A stretch of DNA of 64,000 bases from Carcharhinus amblyrhynchos (Eukaryota): NCBI GenBank assembly GCA_965287045.1, contig OZ336889.1, positions 16,554,001-16,618,000 on the forward strand. Direction: 5' to 3'. The position numbers and the translations under genes were made by a program. This document shows positions 2,295-58,704 of the stretch, one piece after another (within the stretch, counting starts at the first letter, position 1; the number at the start of each line of letters is the position of its first letter). The notes beneath the pieces are model-generated. The model had not been told where the DNA came from. It was given only the letters and a program-made list of their open reading frames with translations, and searched no databases.

Positions 2295-5113
2295 CAGGTG
2301 AAGGCTGGGATGAAGGCACTTTTATCTGAATGCACGAAGCATGTGGAATAAAGTGGATGAGCTGGTGGCGCAGATCAGGCACAAATGGATATGATCTGGT
2401 GGCCATTACAGAGACATGGCTGCAAGGTGACAGACTGGAAGCTGAATGTCCAGGGGTATCAAGTGGATAGGAAGGAGGAAAAAGTGGGGGGGGGGAACCA
2501 AAGAGCAGAACGTGGAATCATTGTGGGTGGAGATGAGGAACAGCAAAGGGAGGAAGATGCTGGTGGGTGTTGTTTATAGGCCCCCAAATAATGATCTGGA
2601 GGTGGGGTGGGCTGTTAACGTGCAAATAAATGCAGCATGCAGGAATGGAACGGCGGTAATTATGGGGGATTTCAATCTACATATTGATTGGTCGACCCGT
2701 GTTGGACACAGTGGGCTTGAGGAGGAGTTCTTGGAATGCTGCCGGGATAGTTTCCTCGAACAGTATGTGTTGGAGCCAACGAGGGAGTGAGCTATCTTGG
2801 ATCTGGTGTTATGTAATGAGGCGGGTAGAATTAGGGACCTTGTGGTGAAGGATCCTCTTGGGAAGAGTGATCATTGTATGGTGGAGTTTCTGATGCAGAT
2901 GGAGGAGGAGAAAGTGGGTTCCCGGACGTGTGTCCTTTGTTTGAACAGAGGGGAGTACGGTAGGATGAGAGGAATTGGCGAATGTTGATTGGGGGAGCAC
3001 GTTGGAAGGTAGGTCTGCTGAGGAACAGTGGAGGATCTTTAAGGAGATCTTTCTTGGTGCTCAGCAGAAATTTATTCCGATGGTTAAAAAGGATCGTAGG
3101 AGGAGAGGTAATAAGCCGTGGATAACGAAGGAGGTGAAGGAAAGTGTTAAATTAAAAGCGGATGCGTTTAGAGTAGCTCAGTAGTGGGTGAGAAGAGGAT
3201 TGGGAGAGGTTTAAATGTCAACAAAGAATGACAAAAGTTGATAAAGAAGGGTAGGAGAAACTGAAGCTGGGCTAGTGCTTAATATAAAAAAGATAGCAAG
3301 AGTTTTTATAAATACATAAAAAGGAAGAGGCTGGCTAGGGTGAACGTTGGACCCTTAGAGGATGAGAGGGGGGGACTTCGTGGTAGGGGATGGGGAAATG
3401 GCTGAGGCCCTGAACAACTTTTTTGTTTTGGTCTTCACGGAGAAGGACGTGAGTAATTTGCTGGGTGTTAGTGATGGAAAGATGGTAGGAGTGGAGGGCC
3501 TGAATGACATTATTGTTACTAGAGAGGCGGTGCTCGACAGACTGGAGGGACTGATTGTGGACAAGTCCCCAGGACCGGATGGAATGCATCCGAGGCTTCT
3601 GAAAGAAATGGCGGAGGTGATAGTGGATGCCTTGGTGGTTATTTTCCAAATGTCGCTGGATTCCAGGGAAGTGCCAGAAGATTGGAAAACGGCTAATGTT
3701 GTTTAAGAAGGGTGCCAGGCAAAAGGCAGGGAATTATAGGCCGGTTAGTTTAACGTCTGTTGTAGGAAAAAATGTTAGAATCTGTGATCAAGGAGAAAAT
3801 AGCGAGGCATCTTGAGAATTGTTTGGTAGAGCAGACGCAGCACGGTTTCGTTAAGGGGAAGTCGTGTCTGACAAATTTATTGGAGTTCTATGAGGATGTG
3901 TCTAGGGCGGTGGATAGAGGAGAGCCGGTGGATGTGGTCTTTCTGGATTTTCAGAAGGTGTTTGACAAGGTGCCTCACGAGGTTATTGCAGAAGGTCAGG
4001 GGGCATGGAGTTGGGGGTAGGGTGTTAGCATGGATAGAGGATTGGTTGTCAAATAGGAGGCAGAGAGTGGGGGTCAGTGGGTGCTATTTGGATTGGCGGT
4101 TGGTGACTAGTGGAGTGCCCCAGGGGCCTCAGCTATTCACCATTTTATATAGATGATCTGGAGGAGGGAACCGAGTGTATGGTGTCAAAATTTGCTGATG
4201 ACACCAAGACAATTGGTGGAATTGCAAATTGTGCGGAGGGTGTGGAGAGTCTGCAGAGGGATCTAGATAGGCTGGGCGAATGGGCCAGGAACTGGCAAAT
4301 GGAATTTAGTGTTGGCAAATGTGAGGTTGTCCACTTGGGTAGGAATAATGGTAGGAAGGACTATTACTTACGTGGCAAAACTGCAGCATGCGATGGTGCA
4401 GAGGGACCTTGGGGTCCTTGTGCATGAGTCGCAAAAACCCAGCCTGCAGGTGCAGCAGGTGGTCAGGAAGATGAATGGGATGCTGGCCTTAGCGAGGGGG
4501 ATTGAATATAAAAGTAGGGAGATCTTGCTGCAGCTGTATAGGGCATTGGTGAGGCCGCAGCTGGAGTACTGTGTGCAGTTTTGGTCGCCACACTTAGGCA
4601 AGGATATTTTGGCCTTGGAGGGAGTGCAGAGGAGGTTTACTAGGCTGATTCTGGAGTTGAGGGGGTTGAACTATGAGGAGGGGTTGAATAAACTAGGCTT
4701 GTACTTAGAGTTTAGAAGAATGAGGGGAGATCTCATTGAGATGTATAAGATGATGAATGGGATGGATAGGATAGAGGTGGAGAGACTCTTGCTGCTCAAA
4801 GGACAGTAGGACCAGAGGGCACAGCCTCAGGATAAAGGGGGTGCGGTTTAGAACGGAGTTGAGGAGGAACTTCTTCACTCAAAGGGTGGTGAATCTCTGG
4901 AATTCTCTGCCCGTTGAGTTGGTGGAGGCTGCCTCGCTCAATATTTTTAAGACGTGGATTGATAGGTTTTTGATAGGCAAGGGGATTAAGGGTTATGAGG
5001 AGAAGGCGGGAATGTGGAACTGAGCTACGACAGATCAGCCATGATCTTATTGAATGGTGGGGCAGGCTCGAGGGGCTAGATGGCCTACTTCTGCTCCTGT
5101 TTCTTATGTTCTT
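2295..5113 (+). mobile_element. CR1 LINE family A, ORF2 (APE endonuclease + RT), frameshifted
   Basis: [58 protein letters not shown] motifs; 3' end ttcttatgttctt; near-identical to 52518-55568. Confidence 0.95.
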
Positions 5114-8946: not shown

Positions 8947-9270
8947 AAGTCTCTCAACACCAGGTTACAGTCCAAGTTTATTTGGTAGGGAAAGCCACTA
9001 GCTTTCAGAGCACTGCTCCTTCATCAGGTAAGGGGGTGTTCTGTTCACAAACATAGAACACTACAGTGCAGTACAGGCCCTTTGGCCTTCAATGGTTTCA
9101 CAAGTCAGTGCAACAATCTAAAGCCCTACACTATGCCAATATCATCCATATGTTTATCCAATGACCATTTAAATGCCCAGGGCATATGAAGACACCCATC
9201 AGTTTACAAAATAATGGTTGGAATGCAAGTCTTTACAAGTAATGAAGTCTTAAAGGTACACACAATGTCA
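8947..9270 (-). mobile_element. Penelope-like element terminal-repeat fragment, interrupted by a CR1 3' end (~9052-9177, minus)
   Basis: Matches 17723-17910 (caacaccaggtt...gccactagctttcagagc...catcaggtaag...gttcacaaac | cagggcatat...ggttggaatgcaagt). Confidence 0.85.
8995..9032 (-). ncRNA. Minimal type-I hammerhead ribozyme motif in PLE terminus
   Basis: Reverse complement reads ttac-CTGATGA-a-GGAGC agt GCTCT-GAAA-gc-TA-gtgg: conserved core, stem II, palindromic AGCU stem III. Confidence 0.65.
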
Positions 9271-11429: not shown

Positions 11430-14400
11430 TGAGGCAAGGTAAGTTTGTAAGTTTTTTGTTTTATTACTTTTTTCTCTATTTCTTAAAGGGCAAGTATGAG
11501 TGTATGTTGTTGCCAATGCAATATGTGGGAGGTCCTGGAGGCTCCTGGTCTCCCAGACATCCATATCTGTTCTCGGTGTGTGGAGCTGCAGTCCCTAAGG
11601 GACCAGGTTAAGGAACTGGAACTGCAGCTCGAGGACCTTCGTCTCATTAGAGAGAATGAGGAGGTAACTGAAGGGAGCTACCAGCAAGTGGTCACACCAG
11701 GGCAATGGGAAGAAGGCAAGTGGGTAATGGTTAGGAAGGGGAAAGCTCATGTGATGGAGAGCATGCTGGTGGATGTGCCCCTTCAAAATAAGTACTCCTG
11801 TCTGAGTACTGCTGCAGGGGACAGGTCACCTGGGGGAGGAAGCAGTGGCCCGGTCTCTGGAGCTGAGCCTGACCCAGTACTTCAAAAAAGTAAGAAAGAG
11901 AACAGCAAGGCAGTGTTAATAGGGGACTCCACAGTAAGGGGATCAGACAGGTGTTTTTGCGGACACAGACGGGAGTCGCGGATGGTGGTTTGCCTCCCTG
12001 GAGCTGGGATCCGGGATGTCTCTGGACGCATCCCAGACATCCTGAAAGGGGAGGGTGAGGAGCTGGAGGTTGTGGTTCACATAGGTACTGCTGATATAGG
12101 CAGGAAGAGGGAAGGGGTCATGAAAAGGGATTATAGGGAATTAGGTAGACAGTTGAGAAAGAGGAATGCGAAGGTAGTAATCTCAGGATTGCTGCCTGTG
12201 CTGCAGGAGAGAGAGCAGAAATGGAATGAGGTGGAGGGTGAATGTGTGGCTGAGGGACTGGAGCAGGGGGCAGGGATTCCAGTTCCTGGATCATTGGGAC
12301 CTCTTTAGGGGCAGGTGTGACCTGTCCAATAAAGATGGGTGGCACTTGAATCCCAGGGGGACCAATATCTTGGTGGGAAGATTGGTTAGGGCTACGGGGG
12401 GGGGGGGCTTTAAACTAAAGGTTGGGGGGAGGGAACTGAGAGCGAGGATGTTAGCTCCCAAGTAGTGAAGGACTGTGGACAGTGAGAGGGAGGTTCGATG
12501 GGTTATGGAGAAGGGAAGCGCCCAGACCAAAGGTCTGAGGTGTCTATTTTAATGTCAGGAGTGTAGTGAACAAAGTATATGAGCTTAAGGTGTGGATTGC
12601 TGCTTGAGAATGTGATGTGGTGGCCATTACAGAGACTTGGATGTCTCAGGGACAGGACTGGGTGCTTCAGGAAGGACAGGGAGGGGGGGCAAAAGAGGTG
12701 GTGGAGTGGCACTGTTGATCAGGGACAGTGTCATGGCTGCAGAGAAGGTGGATGCTGTGGAGGGAAGTTAGGAACAGCAAAGGGTCGGTAACTTTGGATG
12801 TTTTCAATAGGCCGCCCAATTGTGACAGGGAAGTTGAGGTGTGGATAGGGAAACTGATCCAAGAGAGATGTAGTAATAGAGTTGTCATGATGGGAGACTT
12901 TAATTTCCCAAACACCGACTGGAATATCCCTAGGGTAAGGGGTTTGGATGGGGAGGAGTTTGTTAGGTGTGTTCAGGAGGGTTAGGTGGATAAGCCTACG
13001 AGAGGAGAGGCTGTACTTGACCTGGTGCTGGCTAGTGAACCAGGACAGGTGATGGATCTCTTGATGGGAGAGCATCTCGGGGATGGAGATCATAATTCTA
13101 TCTCCTTCAATAGCATTGGAAAGAGATAGGATCAGGCAAGCTAGGAAGGTGTTGTCTGGAGTAAGGGGAAATATGATGACATCAGGCAGACAATTGGACA
13201 AGCAAACTGGAAGGTGGTGTTCTTGGGGAAAAGTACTGAAGGAAGGTGGCGGATTTTCAGGGAATGTTTGACCGGAGCTATGCACGACAACGTTCCGATG
13301 AGACGAGGAGGTTTTGGTAGGTCGCAGGAGCCGTGGTGCACAAAGGTTGTGGTGAACCTGGTCAAGAAGAAAAGGGTGTATAAAAGGTTCAGAGCTAAGA
13401 TGTTAAGGATCTAGAGGAGTATAAGGCTTGTAGAAAGGAGCTTAAAAAGGAAATTAGGAGAGCCAGAAGGGAACATGAGAAGGCCTTGGCAGGTAAGATT
13501 AAGGAGAATCCCAAGGCGTTCTACAAATATGAAGAGAAAAAGGATGAGAAGTGAAGGAATAGGACCTATAAAAGGTGAAGGGGGAAAAGGTCTGTGGAAC
13601 CGGAAGAAATGGCAGAGGTGCTTAATGAGTACTTTGCCTCGGTATTCACGGTGGAAAGTGATCTGGGAGGTTGTACTACAGGTTTGTGGCAGACTGAAAA
13701 GTTTGAGTATGTGGATATTAAGAAAGACGATGTGTTGGAACTTCTATCAAGACAGGCAAGTCACCAGAACTGGATGGGATGTACCCCAGGTTATTGTGGG
13801 AGGTGAGGGAAGTGATTGCAGAGCCCCTGGCGATTTGATCTTTGCATCGTCAATGGAGGCAGGAGAGGTTCTGGAGGATTGCTGATGCGGTTCCTATTTT
13901 CAAAAGGGAACAGGGATAGCCCGGGAAATTACCGACCGGTGAGTCTGACCTCCGTGGTTGCTAAGTTGATGGAGAGGATTCTGAGGGATAAGATTTATGA
14001 GCATTTAGAGAAGTTTAGAATGATCAGGAATAGTCAGCACAGCTTTGTCAAGGGCAGGTTGTGCCTTAGGAGCCTAATTGAGTCCTTTGAAAATGTGACT
14101 GAACACATTGACGAAGAAAGAGCAGTGGATGTGGTTTAATGGACTTCAGCAAGGTGTTTGGTAAGGTCCTCCATGCAAGACTTTTTGAGAAGGTGAGAGG
14201 GCATGGGATCCAAGGGGCTTTGGCCTTGTGGATCCAGAACTGGCTTGCCTGCAGAAGGCAGAGTGGTTGTGGATGGGTCTTTTTCTGCGTGGAGGTCAGT
14301 CACCAGTGGAGTGCCCCAGGGATCAGTTCTGGGACCCTTGCTGTTTGTCATTTTCATAAATGACCTAGATGAGGATGTGGAGGGATGGGTTCGTAAGTTT

Positions 14401-15296
14401 GCTGACAATATGAAGGTTGGTGGTGTTGTGGATGGTGTGGAGGGATGTCAGAAGTTGCAGCGTGACATGATAGGATGCAAGACTGGGTTGGAGAAGTGGC
14501 AGATGGACTTCAACGTGGATAAATGTGTAGTGGTCCATTTTGGCAGGACCAACAGGATGCAGTAGTACAATATAAAGGGTAGGACTCTTAGCAGTGTTGA
14601 AGAGCAGAAGAATCTTGGGGTCCGGGTCCATCGGACTCTTAAATCGGCCTCGCAGGTGGAGGATGTGGTCAAGGCATATGGTGTGCTGGCCTTCGTTAAT
14701 CGAGGGATTGAGTTTAGGAGTCGGGAGGTAATGCTGCAATTTTATGGGACCCTTGTCAGACCCCACTTGGAGTACTGTGCGCAGTTCTGGTCGCCTCACT
14801 ACAGGAAGGATGTGGAAGCTATTGAGGGTGCAGAGGAGATTTACAAGGATGTTGCCTGGATTGGGAGGCATGCTTTATGAAGATAAGTTGAGGGAGCTAG
14901 GTCTCTTCTACCTGGAGAGACGAAGGTTGAGAGGTGACCTGATAGAGGTGTATAAAATGTTGAGAGGAATAGATAGGGTGGATTCTTGGAGGCTATTTCC
15001 CAGGGCTGAAATGGTTGCTACTAAAGGACACAGGTTTAAGGTGCTGGGAAGCAAGTAGAGGAGATGTTAGGGGTAAGTTTTTTTTTCACTCAGGGTGGTG
15101 AGTGAGTGGAATTGGCTGCAGTTGGTGGTGGTAGAGGTGAACTCACAGGGGTCTTTTAAAAGACTTCTGGATGAGTATATGGGATCTAATGGCATTGGAA
15201 GTTAGATTGTTCTATACCTTGGTAGGTATAGATGTGATTGGCACAACTTGTGGGCTGAGGGCCCGTTTGTGCTGTAGTGTTAAGTTCTGTGCTCTA
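11430..15296 (+). mobile_element. Near full-length CR1 LINE family B: ORF1 (zinc finger, coiled coil, SGNH esterase) + degraded ORF2
   Basis: ORF 11496..12308: CxxC..CxxC, VLIGDS, CLPGA, VVVHIGT; next frame DGWHLN; ORF2 motifs MGDFNFP, NYRPVSLTS, SGVPQGSVLGP, FADN. Confidence 0.95.
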
Positions 15297-16059: not shown

Positions 16060-16345
16060 CAAAGAAGAACAAAAACAGCCCAGGAAACAGGCCCTTCGGT
16101 CCAAGCCCGTGCCACCATCTTAACACCACCAGTTCCCCCCCTCCACCCATGACGCTTATCTAATGTTTTATGGCCATCCACATTGAGGGAAACTAATTTG
16201 GGGACAATTTATTACTGCCAGTCAGCCTAGTAGCACATCTTTGGGGTGTGGGAGGAAACCGGAGCACCCAGAGAAAACCCACGCAAGCATGGGGAGAATG
16301 CGCAAACTCCCACAGACACTGGCCTAAGTCCATGTGTCTGCACAG
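16060..16345 (-). mobile_element. HE1/V-SINE-type SINE
   Basis: gtgggaggaaaccggagcacccagagaaaacccacgc...ggggagaatgcgcaaactcc is the reverse of the SINE core. Confidence 0.8.
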
Positions 16346-17722: not shown

Positions 17723-18856
17723 AAGTCTCTCAGCACCAGGTTAAAGTCCAACAGGCTTATTTGGTAGCAAAAGCCACTAGCTTTCAGAGTGCTGCTCTTT
17801 CATCAGGTAAGTGGGAGTTCTGTTCACAAACAGGGCATATAAAGGCACAAACTCAATTCCCAAAATGGTTGGAATGCAAGTTGTGACAGGTAGTCAAGTC
17901 TTAAAGGTACAGTGGAGAGAAGGTTTAGCACAAGTTAAAGAGATGTGTATTGTCTCCAACCAGGACGGTTAGTGGGATTTTGCAAGCCCAAGCAAGTTCT
18001 TAGAGTGTGATATGACCTAGCTCCCAGTTAAGGCCATCCTCGTGTGGGGAACTTGACTCAGTCTCTGCTCAGCGACTGTTGTATGTTGTGAAGGCCACTT
18101 TGGAGAACACTCACCCAAAGATCAGAGGCTGAATGCCTGTGACTGCTGAAGTATTCCCTAACAGAAAGAGAACACTGTGCCAGGTGATTGTTGCATGGTG
18201 TTCATTCATCTGTTGTCATAGTGTCTGCATGGTCTCCCCAATGTACCTTGCCTTGACATCCTTTGCTCAGTGTATCAGGTAGACAACATTGGCCAAGCTG
18301 CAAGCATATGTACCATGTATCTGGTGGATGGTGTTCTTACATGGCATCCATGTCAGTGATCCAGCATGTCTTGCAGAGGTTGCTGTGGCAGGGTTGTGGT
18401 GTCATGGTTACTGTTCTCCCTAAGGATGGGTAGTTTGCTGTGGACAGTGGTCTGTTTGAGGTTGTGCAGTTGTTTGAAGGCAAGAAGTGGGGGTGTAGGG
18501 ATGGCCTTGGCGAGATGTTTGTCTTCAATGACATGTTTGAAGGCCTTGGGTTTGCAAAAAATCTCACCCAACTGTACTGGCTGGAGACAAGACAAATCTC
18601 TTTAACCTGTGCTTAACCTTCTCTCCACTCACATCTTTAAGACTCTTTTACTTGTAAAGACTTGCATTCCAATCATTATTTTGTAAATTGAGTTTGTCTA
18701 TGTATGCCCTATTTGTGAACAGAGCTCCCACTTGCCTGATGAAGGAGCAGTGCTCCAAATGCTAGTGGCTTTTGCTACCAAATAAATCTGGATTTATCTT
18801 GGTGTTGAGACACTTCTTACTGTGTTTACCCCAGTCCAACACTGACATCTCCACAT
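17723..18856 (-). mobile_element. Penelope-like element, 5'-truncated, GIY-YIG endonuclease end with inverted terminal repeat
   Basis: Minus strand encodes PLLAFKQ..NLKQ..V.SKLP, PCHSNLCKTC, NVVYLI...YIGET...NEH; inverted arms ~17723-17990 and ~18547-18815; TSD-like ctatcca/ctgtcca. Confidence 0.9.
17774..17814 (-). ncRNA. Minimal type-I hammerhead ribozyme motif in PLE terminus
   Basis: Reverse complement ccacttac-CTGATGA-a-AGAG cagca CTCT-GAAA-gc-TA-gtgg. Confidence 0.6.
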
Positions 18857-29770: not shown

Positions 29771-30922
29771 GGTTTATATGGACTTTAGTAAGGTGTTTGA
29801 CAAGGTCCCACATGGCAGACTGGTACAAAAATGAAAATCATATGGGATTCGGTGTGGGCTGGCTAGATAAATACAGCACTGGCTTGGTTATAGGAGTGGT
29901 GGTGGAAGGGTGTTTTTCAGAATGGACATCTGTAACTAGTGGTGTTCTGCAGAGATCAATGCTGGGATCCCTGTTGTTTGTAGTGTATATATAAATGATC
30001 TGGAGGAAGATGTGGGCGGTCTGACTAGTAAGTTTGCAGGCAACACAAAGATTGGTGGAGTTGTTGATAGTGCCAGGGATTGTCACAGGATACAACAAGA
30101 TATAGATAGATTGGAGACTTCAGTGCACAGAATGGTAGATAGAATATAATCTAGAGAAATATGAGTTGATGCATTTTGGAGGGTCAAGTTTAGGTGTGAA
30201 TTATCTTGTAGATGGCAGAACCCTTGGGAACATTAACATGCAGAGGTTGCAGGTTCATGGTTCTCAAAAGAGGCAACACAAGTGACCAAGATGATTAAGA
30301 AGGCATATGGCATGCTTGCCTTCAAGCATCCGCCAGGGCATTGAGTGGAAGAGTTGGGAAATCATGTTGCAGCTACTTAAAACCTGATTAGGCCTCATTT
30401 GGAGTATTGCGTGCAGTTCTGGTCACCACACAACCAGAAGTTAGTGGAAGCTTTGGAGAGAGTGCAAAGACGGTTCACTGGGTGTTGCTTAAGAGGTGAG
30501 GTTGAATAAACGAGGATTGTTTTCACTAGAAAGACAGAGGCTGAGGGAAGATCTGACAGAGTTCTACAAAATTTATGGGAGGCATAGACAGGTAGATAGT
30601 CAAAGGCTTTTTCCTTTGGGGGGGGGGGGGCGGGGGGAGGAGTGTCAATTATAAGGGGACACAGATTTAAGGTGAGAGGGGGAAGTTTTAAGGGAGATGC
30701 ACAGGGGAAGTTTTTCATGCATAGAGTGCTGGGTGCTTGGAACCCGCTGCTAGAGGATGTGGGGGAAGTAGGCACATTGGCAACATTTAAGAGGCATCTG
30801 GATGGGTACATGAACAGAAGGATATAGACTGAGTATGGTTTTTTTTTAGTTTGGTTAGGGCATCATGATCAGCACAGACTTGGAGGGGCAAAGGGTCTGT
30901 TCCTGTGCTAATCTGCTCTTTG
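29771..30922 (+). mobile_element. CR1 LINE 3' fragment
   Basis: YMDFSKVFDKVPH, VTSGVLQRSMLGSLLF, RGHRFKV, KFFMHRVLGAWN motifs. Confidence 0.9.
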
Positions 30923-38758: not shown

Positions 38759-41457
38759 TGGGTTTCAAATGTTTCAGAAGGGACGGGGAGGGAGGAAAAA
38801 GATGGGGGAGTGGCACTGTTGATCAGAACTAGTGACACAGCTGTAGAAAAGATGGATGCCATGGAGGGATTGTCTACGGAGTCTGTAGGTGGAGGTTCAG
38901 AACAGGAAGGAGTCACTAACTTTACTGGGTGTTTTCTATAGGCCGCCCAATATTAACAGGGATGTTGAAGAGCAGATAGGGAAACAGATCCTGGAAAGAT
39001 GTAATAATAACAGTTGTCATGATGGGAGATTTTAATTTCCCAAATATCAATTGGAATCTCCCTAAGGCAAGGGGTTTAGATGGGGAGAAGTTTGTTAGGT
39101 GTGTTCAGGAAGGTTTCCTGACACAATGTGGATAAGCCCACAAGATGAGAAGCTGTACTTGATTTGATATTGGGAAATGAACCTGGACAGGTGTCTGATC
39201 TCTCAGTGGGGGAGCATTTTGGGGATAGTGATCATAACTCTATCTCCTTTGGCTTTGGAGGGAGATAGGATCAGACAAACTAGGAAAGTGTTTAATTGGA
39301 GTAAGGGGAATTATGAAGCTATCAGGCAGGAAATTACAGGCATAAATTGGAAAGAGGTTTTCTCAGGGAAATGTACAGAAGAAATGTGGCAAATTTTCAA
39401 GGAATATTGTCTAGAGTTCTGTACAGCAACTTTCCAATGAGACAGGGAAGTTATGGTAGGCTAAAGGAACCGTGGTGCACGAAAGCTGTAATGAATTTAG
39501 CAAATAAGAAAAGGAAAGCTTACAAAAGGTTCAGGGAGTTAGGTAATACTGGAGATCTAGAAGAATATATGGCTAGTAGGAAGGAACTTAAGAAGGAAAT
39601 TAGGAGAGCCAGAAGGGGACATGAGAAGGCCTTGGCAGGTAGGATTAAGGAAAACCCCAAGGCATTCTACAAGTATGTGAAGAGCAAGAGGATAAGACGT
39701 GAAGGAATAAGACCTATCAGGTGTGACGGTGGGAAGATTTGTATAGAACCGCTAGAAATTGCAGAGGTGCACAATGAATATTTTACTTCAGTATTCACAG
39801 TGGAAAAGGATCTTGGTGGTTGTAGTACAGATTTGCAGCGGACTGAAAAGCTTGGACATGTAGACATTAAGAAAGAGGATGTGTTGGAGCTTTTGAAAAG
39901 CATCAATTTGGGTAAGTCTCCAGGACTGGATGGGATGTACCCCAGGTTACTGTGGGAGGGGAGGAGATTGCTGAGCCTCTTGAGCAATGATCTTTGTGTC
40001 ATCAGTGGAGATGGGAGCGGTTCTGGAGGATTGTGGATGTGGTTCCTTTATTCAAGAAAGGGAGAAGAGATAGCCCAGGAAATTACAGACCAGTGAGGCT
40101 AACCTCAGTGGTTGGTAAGTTGATGGAGAAGATCCTGAGAGATAGGATTTATGAACATCTGGAGAGGTATAGCATGATCAAGAATAGTCAGCACGGCTTT
40201 GTCAAAAGCAGATCATGCCTGACGAGCCTGATTGAATTTTGAGGATGTCTCTAAACACATTGACAAAGGAAGAGCAGTAAATGTGGTTTATATGGACTTC
40301 AGCAAGGCATTTGATAAGGTGCCCTATGCAAGGCTTATTGAGAAAGTGAGGAGGTATGGGATCCAAGGGGAGATTGCTCTGTGAATTCAGAACTGGCTTG
40401 CCCACAGAAGGCAAAGAATGGTTGTAGATGGGTGGTCTTCTGCATGGAGGTCTGTCACCAGTGGACACTGGTCTGTCACCAGTGGATCTGTTCTGGGACC
40501 CTTGCTCTTTGTGTCATCAGCAAACTTGCCAACCCATTCCTCCACTCCTTCATCCAGGTCATTTATAAAAAAATCACAAAGGTTGGAGGTGTTGTGGATA
40601 GTGTGGAGGGATGTCAGAAGTTGCAGTGAGAGCTTGATAAGATGCATGACTGGGCAGAGAAGTGGCAGGTGGACTTCAACCCAGATAAGTGTGTGATGAT
40701 TCATTTTGGCAGGTCAAATATGATGACAGATTATAATATTAAGGGTAAGAGTCTTGGCAGTGTGGAAGATCAGAACGATCTTGGGGTCTGGGTTCATAGG
40801 ACGCTCAAAGCAGCTTTGCAGGTTGAGGCTGTGGTTAAGAAAGTGTATGGTGTACTGGCATTCAACAATTGAGGAATTGAGTTTAGGAATGGGGAGATAA
40901 TGCTGCAGCTGTATAAGACCCTGGTCAGACCCCACTTGGAGTACTGTGCTCAGTTCTGGTCGCCTCATTACAGAAAGGATGTGGAAGCCGTCGAAAGGGT
41001 GCAGAGCAGATTTACAAGAATGTTGCCTGGATTGGTGGCATGCCTTATGAGGATAGGTTGAGAGAGCTCAGTCTTTTCTCCTTGGAGAGACGAAGGATGA
41101 GGGGTGACCTGATAGAGGTGTCTTAGATGATGAGGGGTATTGATTGAGTGAATTCTCAGAGGCTTTTTTCCAGGGCTGAAATTGTTGCCACAAGAGGACA
41201 CAGGTTTAGGCTGCTGGGGAGTAGGTACAGAGGAGATGCCGGGGTAAGTTTTTCACTCGGTGTGGTGGGTGCACATGAAATCGTCTGCCAGTGGTGGTGG
41301 TGGAGGTGGATTCGATAGGGTCTTTTAAGAGACATTTGGATAAGTACGTGGAACTTAGTAAGATGGAGGGTTATAGGTATGCCTAGTGGGTAGAGACATG
41401 TTCGGTGCAACTTGTGGGCCGAAGGGCCTGTTTGAGCTGTAGTTTTTCTATGTTTCA
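38759..41457 (+). mobile_element. CR1 LINE family B ORF2, 5'-truncated, with internal micro-inversion
   Basis: Colinear with 12590-15296; ENPKAFYKYV, KSPGLDG, NYRPV, QHGFV; tail tttctatgtttc. Confidence 0.95.
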
Positions 41458-46246: not shown

Positions 46247-46899
46247 AGGCGAATGGGATGCTGGCCTTCATAGCGAGGGGGATTGAATATGGAAGTAGGG
46301 AGGTCTTGCTGCAGCTGTATAGGGCATTGGTGAGGCCGCAGCTGGAGTACTGTGTGCAGTTTTGGGCGCCGCACCTGCGCAAAGATATTTTGGCCTTGGA
46401 GGGAGTGCAGAGGAGGTTTACTAGGCTGATACCGGAGTTGAGGGGGTTGAGCTATGAGGAGAGGCTGAATAAACTAGGCTTGTACTCGTTAGAGTTTAGA
46501 AGAATGAGGGGAGATCTCATTGAGATGTATAAGATGATGAATGGGATGGATAGGATAGAGGTGGAGAGACTCTTCCTGCTCAAAAAAGACAGTAGGACTA
46601 GGGGGCACAGCCTCAAGATAAAAGGGGGGCGGTTTAGAACAGAGTTGAGGAGGAACTTCTTCACTCAAAGGGTGGTGAATCTCTGGAATTCTCTGCCCGT
46701 TGAAGTGGTGGAGGCTGCCTCGCTAAATATTTTTAAGACGCGGGTTGATGGGTTTTTGATAAGAGAGGGGATTAAGGGTTATGGGGAGAAAGCGGGAAAG
46801 TGGAACTGAGCAGCGACAGATCAGCCATGATCTTATTGAATGGCGGGGCAGGCTCGAAGGGCTAGATGGCCTACTCCTGCTCCTATTTCTTATGTTCTT
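46247..46899 (+). mobile_element. Young 5'-truncated CR1 family A copy
   Basis: Uninterrupted 183-aa ORF2 C-terminus nearly identical to 54907..55479; same 3' UTR. Confidence 0.95.
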
Positions 46900-52517: not shown

Positions 52518-55500
52518 GGGAGGGTGTGAGGGTAGGTGACATTACGGGGTCTAAAGTTAAGGAGACGGTACAAGTAAGGATAGAGGCCGAGGATGTCCCA
52601 ATAATAGAGGGAGTAAGGGGCATGAGTATGGTTGGTGGCGTTCCGGCAAATAAGGTCCAGGTGAAGGCTGGGATGAAGGCGCTTTATCTGAATGCGCGAA
52701 GCATTAGGAATAAAGTGGATGAGTTGGTGGCGCAGGTCGACACAAATGGATATGATCTGGTGGCCATTACAGAGACGTGGCTGCAAGGTGACAGGGACTG
52801 GGAGCTGAATGTCCAGGGGTATCAAGTGTTTAGGAAGGATAGGCGGGAGGAAAAAGGGGGGGGCGTAGCTCTGCTGATTAAGGATAGCATCAGGGTGGTA
52901 GCAAGGGATGATATTGGAGCCAAGGAGCAGAACGTGGAATCGTTGTGGGTAGAGATTAGGAACAGCAAAGGGAGGAAGACACTGGTGGATGTCGTCTGTA
53001 GACCCCGAATAATGATCTGGAGGTGGGGCGGGCTGTTAACGCACAAATAAGTGCGGCGTGCAGGAATGGGACGGCCGTAGTTATGGGGGATTTCAATCTG
53101 CACGTTGATTGGTCGACCCATGTTGGACGCGATGGGCTCGAGGAGGAGTTCTTGGAATGCTGCCGGGATAGTTTCCTGGAACAGTGTGTGTTGGAGCCGA
53201 CGAGGGAGCGAGCTATCTTGGATCTGGTGCTATGTAATGAGGCGGGTAGAATTAGGGAACTTGTGGTGAAGGATCCTCTTGGGGAGAGTGATCATTGTAT
53301 GGTGGAGTTTCTGGTGCAGATGGAGGAGGAGAAAGTGGGTTCCCGGACACGCGTCCTTTGTTTGAACAGAGGGGAGTACGGTAGGATGAGAGAGGAATTG
53401 GCGAATGTGGACTGGGGGAGCGCGTTGGAAGGTAGGTCTGCTGAGGAGCAGTGGAGGATCTTTAAGGAGATCTTTCTTGGTGCTCAGCAGAAATTTATTC
53501 CGATGGTCAAAAAGGATCGTAGGAGGAGAGGTAATAAGCCGTGGATAACGAAGGAGGTGAAGGAAAGTGTTAAATTAAAAGCGGAGGCGTTTAGAGTAGC
53601 TAAGAGTAGTGGGCGAGAAGAGGATTGAGAGAGGTTTAAATGTCAACAAAGATTGACAAAGAAGTTGATAAAGAAGGGTAGGAGAAACTATGAAGCTGGG
53701 CTAGCGCTTAATGTAAAAAAGATAGCAAGAGTTTTTATAAATATATAAAAAGGAAGAGGCTGGCTAGGGTGAACGTTAGACCCTTAGAGGATGAGAAGGG
53801 GGTCTTAGTGGTAGGGGGTGGGGAAATGGCTGAGGTCTTGAATAACTTTTTTGCTTCTGTCTTCACGGAGGAGGACGTGAATAATTTGCCGGATGTTAGA
53901 GATGGAAAGGTGGTAGGACTGGAAGGTCTCGATGACATTACTGTTACTAGAGAGGTGGTGCTCGGCAGACTGGAGGGGCTGATTGTGGACAAGTCCCCAG
54001 GACCGGATGGAATGCATCCGAGGGTCCTGAAAGAAATGGCGGAGGTGATAGTGGATGCCTTGGTGGTTATTTTCCAGACGTCACTGGATTCCGGGGAAGT
54101 GCCGGAAGATTGGAAAACGGCTAATGTTACGCCGTTGTTTAAGAAGGGTGCCAGGCAAAAGGCGGGGAATTATAGGCCTGTTAGTTTAACGTCTGTTGTA
54201 GGTAAAATGTTAGAATCCGTCATCAAGGAGGAAATAGCGAGGCAACTTGAGGGGAACTGCTTGATAGAGCAGACGCAGCACGGTTTCGTTAAAGGGAAGT
54301 CGTGTCTGACAAATTTACTGGAGTTCTATGAGGATGTGTCTAGGGCGGTGGATAGAGGAGAGCCGGTGGATGTGGTCTTTCTTGATTTTCAGAAGGCGTT
54401 TGACAAGGTACCTCACAAGAGGTTATTGCAGAAGGTCAGGGGGCATGGAGTTGGGGGTAGGGTGTTAGCGTGGATAGAGGACTGGTTGTCAAATCGGAGG
54501 CAGAGTGGGGGTCAATGGGTGCTATTCGGATTGGCGGATGGTGACTAGTGGAGTGCCCCAGGGGTCAGTGCTGGGGCCTCAGCTATTTACCATTTATATA
54601 GATGATCTGGAAGAGGGAACTGAGTGTAGGGTGTCGAAATTTGCTGATGACACCAAAATTGGTGGAAAGGCAAATTGTGCGGAGGGTGGGGAGAGTCTGC
54701 AGAAGGATCTAGATAGGCTGGGCGAATGGGCCAGGAAATGGCAGATGGAATTTAATGTTGGCAAGTGCAAGGTGGTCCACTTTGGTAGGAATAATGGTAG
54801 GAAGGATTATTGCTTGCGTGGAGAAAAACTGCAGCAGGTGACGGTGCAGAGGGACCTCGGGGTCCTTGTGCATGAGTTGCAAAAACCCAGCTTGCAGGTA
54901 TAGCTGGTGGTCAGGAAGGCGAATGGGATGCTGGACTTCATCGCGAGGGGGATTGAATATAAAAGTAGGGAGGTCTTGCTGCGGCTGTATAGGGCATTGG
55001 TGAGGCCGCAGCTGGAGTACTGTGTGCAGTTTTGGGCGCCGTACTTACGCAAGGATATTTTGGCCTTGGAGGGAGTGCAGAGGAGGTTTACTAGGCTGAT
55101 GCCGGAGTTGAGGGGGTTGAGCTATGAGGAGAGGCTGAATAAATTAGGCTTGTACTCGTTAGAGTTTAGAAGAATGAGGGGAGATCTCATTGAGATGTAT
55201 AAGATGATGAATGGGATGGATAGGATAGAGGTGGAGAGACTCTTCCCGCTCAGAAAGGATAGTAGGACTAGGGGGCACAGCCTCAAGATAAAGGGGGTGC
55301 GGTTTAGAACGGAGTTGAGGAGGAACTTCTTCACTCAAAGGGTGGTGAATCTCTGGAATTCTCTGCCCGTTGAAGTGGTGGAGGCTACCTCGCTAAATAT
55401 TTTTACGACGCGGGTTGATGGGTTTTTGATAAGAGAGGGGATTAAGGGTTATGGGGAGAGGGTGGGAATGTGGAACTGAACCACGACAGATCAGCCATGA

Positions 55501-55568
55501 TCTTATTGAATGGCGGGGCAGGCTCGAAGGGCTAGTTGGCCTACTCCTGCTCCTATTTCTTATGCTCT
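52518..55568 (+). mobile_element. Young CR1 family A copy with nearly intact ORF2
   Basis: Complete APE (YLNARSIRNK, AITETW, MGDFN, SDH) and RT (FADDTK); few lesions (frameshifts near 53005, 53720, 54500; stops at 53626 and 54901); CpG-rich. Confidence 0.97.
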
Positions 55569-57845: not shown

Positions 57846-58407
57846 ACCGGTAATATCAGGGGAAGCGAAAAACCAGTTGTGATCCTGCCTAATCTCACCA
57901 CCTCACCTCGCTGAAAGTCGGTGGGATGAAGTCATGATTATTTATGGGACATCACTATGCCCATTTCTTTCCACCAAAACAATGACTATGCATTGCAGCT
58001 ATTTCATAGGTTATAAAATATTTTGGGATATCATGAGGTCGTGAAAGATACTAGATGGATGAAATTCATTCTTTCCTTTATCTTGCCCTTATCAAAAGTT
58101 TGTAAAATGTATATGGGACATTATAAAAGATAAAAGTTATTTTTTCTATTTCCATGTCATATGATGTGGAAGCAACAATCAATTCATTTTAGTTTTTAAT
58201 TTCTTTTCATCAGCCATAAAGAAGATTTCAGAACTTGAGGCATGATTTTCCTCGTTTCTGATGAAAGGCTTGTAACATGAAGGGAGCGATCTTTCCAAAA
58301 AATTTCAAAGCGCTGAACAAGCTTGAAAACAGGAGAGAATCGCATTCTTGGCTGAGCTCCCAGAAGCAACCGTATGGCACTTAGAGAGCCCTGATGTGAC
58401 TCTTGCC

Positions 58408-58636
58408 GTAAAAAGTCTGACAACACCAGGTTTTAGTCCAACCTATTTATTTGATAATATTCTCACTAGCTTTCGAGGGGACAGCCTCTTCGTCAGGTGA
58501 ATGGAGAGTTCTGGCGAAGAGGCTGTCCCCTCGAAAGCTAGTGAGAATATTATCAAATAAATAGGTTGGACTAAAACCTGGTGTTGTCAGACTTTTTACT
58601 GTGTTTACGCCAGTCCAACGCCGGCATACCCACATC
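58408..58636. mobile_element. Short Penelope-like inverted-terminal-repeat insertion (hairpin) with 12-bp TSD
   Basis: Arms 58408-58496 and 58511-58599 (one mismatch), 37-nt PLE tail, flanked by gtgactcttgcc at 58396-58407 and 58637-58648. Confidence 0.92.
58462..58503 (-). ncRNA. Minimal type-I hammerhead ribozyme motif in PLE terminus
   Basis: Reverse complement ttcac-CTGACGA-a-GAGG ctgtcc CCTC-GAAA-gc-TA-gtgag; stem I tcac/gtga. Confidence 0.7.
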
Positions 58637-58704
58637 GTGACTCTTGCCAGCAGGAGGAGGGATGGAGCCTATTTACACCAGGAAGCCAGCTGCTAGGCTC
58701 CAGG

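Follow-up and report, generated by a model that had tools for sequence, protein, structure and literature searches.

Minimal type-I hammerhead motifs in the terminal repeat of an abundant Neptune-type Penelope-like element of Carcharhinus amblyrhynchos

Three short motifs in a 64,000-nt stretch of the Carcharhinus amblyrhynchos genome (contig OZ336889.1, positions 16,554,001 to 16,618,000; hereafter, the window) are read here as minimal type-I hammerheads located in the end repeat of an abundant and recently active Neptune-type Penelope-like element (PLE). We consider it probable that this is what they are, that the window copies are by-products of insertion which likely do not cut, and that the family as a whole would show weak cutting of a minority of transcripts, with uncut RNA serving as the template.

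RESULTS AND DISCUSSION

Hammerhead motifs in the window and across the genome

The initial annotation had described three hammerhead motifs at PLE termini, and their positions, their placement on the minus strand, and the stems as written were all confirmed. Sequence comparison within the window identified the three sites as homologous copies of one repeat family. The inventory itself was incomplete: the three listed sites stand, but a fourth copy (18736-18768, plus strand) and the mirror arm of site 3 had been overlooked. The copies are as follows.

8995-9031, minus strand: site 1, a minimal hammerhead of the older subfamily, decayed (G10.1-U11.1), within a short pLTR fragment; read from 9031 to 8995, stem I uuac 9031-9028, core 9027-9003, GC-UA, gugg 8998-8995
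17774-17810, minus strand: site 2, a minimal hammerhead of the older subfamily, decayed (A10.1-U11.1), 3' of a GIY-YIG remnant; read from 17810 to 17774, uuac 17810-17807, core 17806-17782, gugg 17777-17774
18730-18768, plus strand: a degenerate fourth copy that has lost the GAAA of the core and pairs with site 2 as its inverted arm
58462-58501, minus strand: site 3, a young-subfamily minimal type-I hammerhead whose motif is intact; read from 58501 to 58462, (u)ucac 58501-58497, core 58496-58471, GC-UA, guga(g) 58466-58462

Site 3 combines stem I UUCAC/GUGAG with CUGACGA, an extra A, stem II GAGG/CCUC, and GAAA-GC-UA, and its cut is predicted to fall between 58467 and 58466 on the minus strand. 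The 124-126 nt of sequence adjoining it are 100% identical in many genome copies. Within the window, the bare core pattern occurs at chance level (7 matches versus 6.3 expected from shuffles), and an Rfam covariance-model scan of the window, taken to an E value of 1, returned no hammerhead match; helix III is lacking in the minimal forms. The case therefore stands on homology and copy number. An Rfam match of mir-665 to the site 3 hairpin was rejected as a chance match, and a search of a phage collection gave no match.

The genome-wide hammerhead search that had been proposed as a check was run as a strict pattern (core, extra A, GG, C11.1, UH, and G1.1) and bore out the reading, with 34,008 exact matches in the 2.92-Gb genome compared with 6 for the reversed control. 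Counting the young clade by a 20-nt anchor gave 39,692 exact matches. Features of the motif were then tallied in 216 copies of this family (family A) from fetched loci, a sample enriched for our own queries. The extra A between A9 and 10.1 is present in all 216 copies, and the AGCU palindrome in 198. Position 17 (H) is A, U, or C, a range restricted by the search pattern itself, and the core columns are invariant in the alignment, being partly fixed by that pattern. These sequence features uphold the earlier interpretation as minimal type-I hammerheads that have the AGCU palindrome, carry an additional A following A9, and are predicted to cut at CUA. Judged by sequence, the motifs are the minimal type-I hammerheads known from PLE ends (Cervera and de la Pena 2014).

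Two other arrangements were observed in the genome. A repeated block with two different hammerhead variants recurs with a period of ~50-75 kb at 5.34-5.53 Mb of C1 in G000, and positions 58609778-58609952 of C11 hold a four-copy, 49-nt tandem of the post-cut fragment.

The element that carries the motifs

The PLE has a single ORF of 893 aa that is intact in young copies, and the full ORF, in two copies, contains DKG, YIDD, a CX4CXXC linker, and C,C,H,H endonuclease residues. Pfam analysis of a 501-aa ORF fragment matched RVT_1 (E 3.7e-10) and, below the Pfam cut-off, GIY-YIG (E 0.0014). The best-matching cluster in the atlas is most frequent in Chordata. On the strength of its linker and CCHH residues, the element is provisionally assigned to the EN+ Neptune-type PLEs; a CX2-5CxxC linker together with CCHH endonuclease residues marks Neptune, the linker being common to Nematis as well (Craig et al. 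2021, PMC8557442). The proposed link of the motifs to a PLE thus held, given the intact ORF in young copies and the following remnant directly upstream of site 2.

18006-18547, minus strand: remnant of the 3' end of the PLE ORF, frameshifted, with linker and GIY-YIG, covering residues 701-890 of 893 (tblastn E 2e-31)

Copies identical to the flank of site 3 likewise sit downstream of the long ORF. The order within a unit is ORF stop, a 3' UTR of ~220 nt, the hammerhead, 96 nt, and the ATG of the next unit, with tandem units spaced at ~3.03 kb. Among the best-scored RT matches, 39 others are 100% identical over 167 nt, which, together with the number of anchor matches, indicates that the family is very young. 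Site 2 and the fourth copy form a head-to-head pair, for which a target duplication was searched and not found.

Other repeats share the window with these copies. Positions 12674-13051 and 38900-39250 (minus strand) show 63% nucleotide matches to the PLE ORF region and probably represent ancient pieces of related elements. Several large RT fragments from two or more LINE-type families, which we take to be CR1/L2-like, lie at 2582-5097, 13746-15083, 29778-30458, 39902-41253, 46247-46883, and 53003-55553, with pairs 76-97% alike; elsewhere in the genome, young PLE copies are often inserted into such LINEs. A SINE-like dispersed repeat family is found at 16236, 20855, 45811, and 61752, along with inverted copies.

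Site 3 as one arm of a fold-back insertion

Site 3 is one arm of a 229-bp fold-back insertion (58408-58636), which is composed and bordered as follows.

58396-58407, plus strand: left target-site duplication, 12 bp
58408-58515, minus strand: minus arm, a 5'-truncated pLTR fragment without a tail, ending 59 nt past the cut site
58516-58636, plus strand: plus arm, a pLTR fragment that starts inside the catalytic core, lacks the 5' strand of stem I, and carries the tail
58637-58648, plus strand: right target-site duplication, 12 bp

The minus arm is 100% identical over 108 nt to the pLTR of a genomic copy (L101), the inverted repeat joining both arms measures 89 nt (99%), and the plus arm ends at the base before the position of the ORF ATG. 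The plus arm seems to begin with a core substitution, but this is simply where the two arms meet. Microhomology of a few bases is present at this arm junction (58497-58516), just upstream of the core, and a strand switch within ~25 nt of the 5' side of the core was also seen in L045, L046, L051, L053, L057, and L060, in a sample selected for intact motifs.

Among the first 100 young copies listed, head-to-head pairs within 5 kb account for 70 and direct tandems for 2, the latter being full PLE units. The 3' ends of copies are bimodal, clustering ~+49 to +66 and ~+95 to +104 nt from the cut, and these two groups match the two internal RT starts described for the anole element (PMC11167929). The layout of site 3 in turn matches the inverted insertions of pLTR plus tail described for EN+ PLEs (Arkhipova et al. 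2013, PMC3846280; Craig et al. 2021, PMC8557442), which also have head-to-head, 5'-truncated arms, a tail of 30-40 nt on one arm, and a short target duplication. Unlike those insertions, site 3 comprises only a 229-bp hairpin without an ORF.

A transcript through the site 3 insertion is predicted to form a hairpin of -182 kcal/mol (z -24), in which the 89-bp hairpin encloses the motif. Activity of the window copies is unlikely, given the decay of sites 1 and 2 and of the fourth copy and the predicted locking of site 3 in this hairpin. The three window copies are truncated insertion by-products that likely do not cut. The alternative that one or more of them is a domesticated ribozyme, locally active on a host transcript, draws on the perfect state of site 3 as a young copy and on element fragments present in contigs of runs guessed to be RNA. 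It is opposed by the decay of sites 1 and 2 at G10.1-C11.1, by the predicted pairing of site 3 with its mirror arm, by the lack of an intact same-strand partner near any window copy, and by their all being unexceptional copies in a family that numbers tens of thousands. We regard domestication as highly improbable and retain the view of these copies as by-products.

Stem changes among subfamilies and a second family

The initial annotation had noted that the stems differ among the three copies while pairing is kept. The stems are correct as written, but the differences among the three copies do not amount to compensatory covariation. The stem II forms GGAGC/GCUCU and AGAG/CUCU, previously taken as subfamily variants, likely reflect decay of the G10.1-C11.1 pair, which is G-C in 182, G-U in 26, and A-U in 3 of the 216 family-A copies. 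This pair is kept at site 3, whereas it is G-U at site 1 and A-U at site 2; both are best read as decay, since G-C dominates and C11.1 precedes G12, forming a CpG. Similarly, uuac/gugg versus ucac/guga in stem I, also previously read as covariation, is accounted for by one-sided wobble changes (C-G/U-G and U-A/U-G).

Elsewhere in stem II, the second pair is A-U in 110 and G-C in 99 of the 216 copies, and the third is G-C in 162 and A-U in 42, each being paired in 98-99%, while the fifth position is paired in only 23% of copies. In stem I, a GCGAG variant has propagated that creates an A-C mismatch at pair 2 (20/216 copies); as it breaks the stem, selection on stem I is not strict. This variant, with GC in place of GT after the cut site (L066, L095, L106, L115, L116, and L122), occurs with several different stem II loops, which suggests recombination or conversion between subfamilies.

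A second, older family (family B; 19 copies sampled, e.g., L041:1452-1494, plus strand, with further copies in L186 and L190-L213) has an ACGU palindrome and a different stem I, AGCU/GGCU. The palindrome reads ACGU in 6 of the 19 copies, and the other 13 have CpG-decay forms. An ORF belonging to family B was not found: only two of its loci matched the family-A ORF, one of which is a family-A insertion. In 9 of the 19 copies, the motif runs directly into a pyrimidine tract, followed by CAG and either ATG or GTG, an arrangement that resembles a splice acceptor at the ORF start.

An alignment of 21 hand-picked rows (the 3 window copies, 17 of 38 listed variants, and 1 more), restricted to rows with G10.1, C11.1, and either GC or CG in the palindrome, showed two-sided change in 7 of 9 pairs, a result reached by 0 of 500 shuffles (slid controls were 21-46% paired), although relatedness among the sequences raises such scores. 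Nearly all of the stem I and palindrome signal is contributed by family B, and the decayed site 2 accounts for one of the stem II events. True two-sided stem changes exist, but only across subfamilies and relative to family B.

Cleavage and the insertion template

In silico, the motifs taken alone show no folding advantage over shuffled sequences (z -0.58 to +0.26), and for site 3 a competing dimer (-21.2 kcal/mol) outscores the double-hammerhead model (-16.5 kcal/mol). A thermodynamic signal was found for neither monomer nor dimer. Weak predicted folding fits the published picture, in which minimal hammerheads of PLEs show no activity as monomers and weak activity as dimers (PMC4209133). The anole PLE motif is reported to cut only with protein present (PMC11167929), and one of nine retrozyme dimers was active (bioRxiv 10.64898/2026.07.22.740005).

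In the model that we favor, the pLTR promoter would give rise to a tandem transcript with two motifs ~3 kb apart, and pairing of AGCU between two motifs, the partner lying ~3 kb away or on another RNA, would create a weak double hammerhead. Cleavage after CUA or CUU would be weak and probably assisted by the ORF protein, help of a kind demonstrated for the anole Poseidon. From start points downstream, at ~+60 and ~+96, reverse transcription would copy through the intact motif, and early template switching would leave short fold-back stumps like site 3. Cutting would likely trim, silence, or down-regulate a minority of RNAs instead of making the insertion template.

The ribozyme could instead routinely cut element RNA in vivo, with cut RNA as a main template and genomic 5' ends marking the cut site. 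A hand count was suggestive of this, as ~12 of ~52 truncated ends among the first 100 rows listed fell at -2 to 0, but the mild bump was overturned by whole-genome counts. Matched filters for the young clade found no excess of 5' ends at the cut site across the genome, with 184 breaks at 0/-1 versus 180 at +3/+4, the one control position, for which the filter was stricter. After correction for base composition and filter passing, the ratio was 0.71 (0.58-0.88), equivalent to ~1.2% versus ~1.6% of copies; the pattern omits the GCGAG variant (~1/10 of copies), an omission that does not close the gap. Inspection of individual loci showed that the upstream 5' half of the ribozyme is missing from 28 of the 30 test loci and from all 30 control loci, and both counts therefore consist mostly of true breaks. 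Moreover, none of 30 unselected young copies starts within 3 nt of the cut site, and at least 34,008 copies hold an uncut motif. Routine cutting is accordingly improbable, and inserted copies in this genome appear to come from uncut RNA.

A putative intron beside the ribozyme

Directly past the cut site, 189 of the 216 family-A copies read GT and 21 read GC, and in the young clade the sequence from the cut onward is GTGAGT, GTGAGA, or GCGAGT, which resembles a splice donor. An AG ends 71-74 nt past the cut in 100 of the 105 copies where this region was found, behind a U-rich stretch and 23 nt before the ATG, and AATAAA occurs between the cut site and the AG in 199 of 216 copies. In the fold-back insertion, the predicted interval is as follows.

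58541-58613, plus strand: putative 73-nt 5'-UTR intron, with GT at the predicted cut and AG at 58612-58613, holding AATAAA

AATAAA was located in the region of 58480-58485 (minus strand) and at ~58555-58560 (plus arm). Genomic 3' ends at ~+60 and ~+96 lack poly(A), despite the AATAAA just 3' of the ribozyme.

Among contigs aligned to a genomic copy (L110), one each in runs X2 and X9 skips 69 nt and rejoins at the same AG; the two runs have the same organism label, come from two studies, and are guessed to be RNA. The skip is consistent with loss of a GT..AG interval spanning +4 to +72 in a copy of the GTGGGT type, which would place the donor 4 nt past the cut rather than at it. The shorter side of this alignment is 27 nt, with a likeness of 85; as this length equals that to the tail end, the skip may derive from a fragment in a host transcript or from a DNA deletion. 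A joint at the predicted intron was absent in two further runs aligned to L110 and in contigs of X1, X2, X4, and X18. The older subfamily has GTGGCT after the cut, which is a poor donor, and family B is without GT there; in addition, the post-cut G and GUG are also required by stem I pairing. A pattern search for intron-less genomic copies returned 24 matches versus 27 for the control, and none of the 24 was precisely spliced (four were in element sequence, one of which is an imprecise internal deletion). The lack of a precisely spliced genomic copy is as expected for PLEs.

A 75-bp 5'-UTR intron is needed for expression of the Drosophila virilis Penelope (PMC2377424). The putative intron here would start at the 3' side of the motif, whereas the D. 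virilis intron has its end at the 5' side of helix I (PMC4209133). The odds that an intron ends at the AG are, in our estimation, about even. More tentatively, a spliceosomal 5'-UTR intron of ~70 nt could start at the scissile bond (or at +4) and end 23 nt before the ATG, with splicing, self-cleavage, and use of AATAAA competing on the same few nucleotides; spliced RNA would then lead to protein, and unspliced, uncut RNA would be the template. We hold this to be possible but doubtful. Searches of the literature outside subscription journals found neither a report of shark PLE hammerheads nor one of a splice donor at the hammerhead cut site.

The same region bears on another explanation, namely that what maintains the fold is chiefly a binding or regulatory role (in a promoter, splice-site, or RT-recognition region of the pLTR), with little or no cleavage function in this lineage. 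The donor-like post-cut sequence of the young clade, the AG ~73 nt further on, and the frequent AATAAA are in keeping with such a role, as is the GCGAG variant, which breaks stem I yet would keep a GC donor; ribozyme mutants of the anole element also had no effect on insertion in vitro (PMC11167929). Against this, the core, the NUH rule, two independent forms of the palindrome, and stem II compensation have been kept, all of which are needs of catalysis, and the anole motif does cut when protein is present (PMC11167929). A mainly regulatory fold is thus unlikely, and we continue to favor hammerheads that cut weakly.

Comparison with known elements

The minimal hammerheads described from PLEs (PMC4209133) share most properties of the motifs here. 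They are also of type I and without a real helix III, with an extra nucleotide between 9 and 10.1, G10.1-C11.1, a palindromic 15.2-16.2, a short stem I, and a location in the pLTR, and they likewise occur as many dispersed, truncated copies, with motifs close together on opposite strands. This host group is not named in the text and supplements of that study that were searched. It gives ~4,000 copies for coelacanth and ~9,000 for Xenopus, compared with at least 34,008 here, although the descriptors differ.

The PAc element of Anolis carolinensis, a Poseidon (Frangieh et al. 2024, PMC11167929), also has a pLTR hammerhead, two downstream internal RT starts, and both tailed and tail-less copies. 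Uncut RNA was its dominant template and no RNA ends were found at the cut site, a behavior to which we liken that of the element here. In contrast, PAc belongs to Penelope/Poseidon and its ORF starts inside stem II, whereas the present element has a Neptune-type Cys linker and an ATG 96 nt after the cut, at the tail end. Non-LTR retrozymes also carry PLE-derived type I hammerheads, and one cartilaginous fish in the sample of that study has them (bioRxiv 10.64898/2026.07.22.740005). Retrozymes form head-to-tail tandem arrays, whereas the window copies are single or head-to-head; as no head-to-tail array of hammerhead units is present, identity of the window copies as retrozymes was ruled out.

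Implications for PLE ribozymes

These results extend the PLE motif described in 2014 to a further host lineage, and at a very large copy number. The genome-wide count of 5' ends argues that insertion templates are uncut, in agreement with the one in vitro study. With a very young family, many intact 893-aa ORFs, and natural stem variants, this genome offers a good test system for PLE ribozyme function. If the overlap of splice donor and cut site holds, the role of the ribozyme and that of the retained 5'-UTR intron could be tested with one reporter, and, if true, a single switch would tie intron retention in PLEs to the role of their ribozyme.
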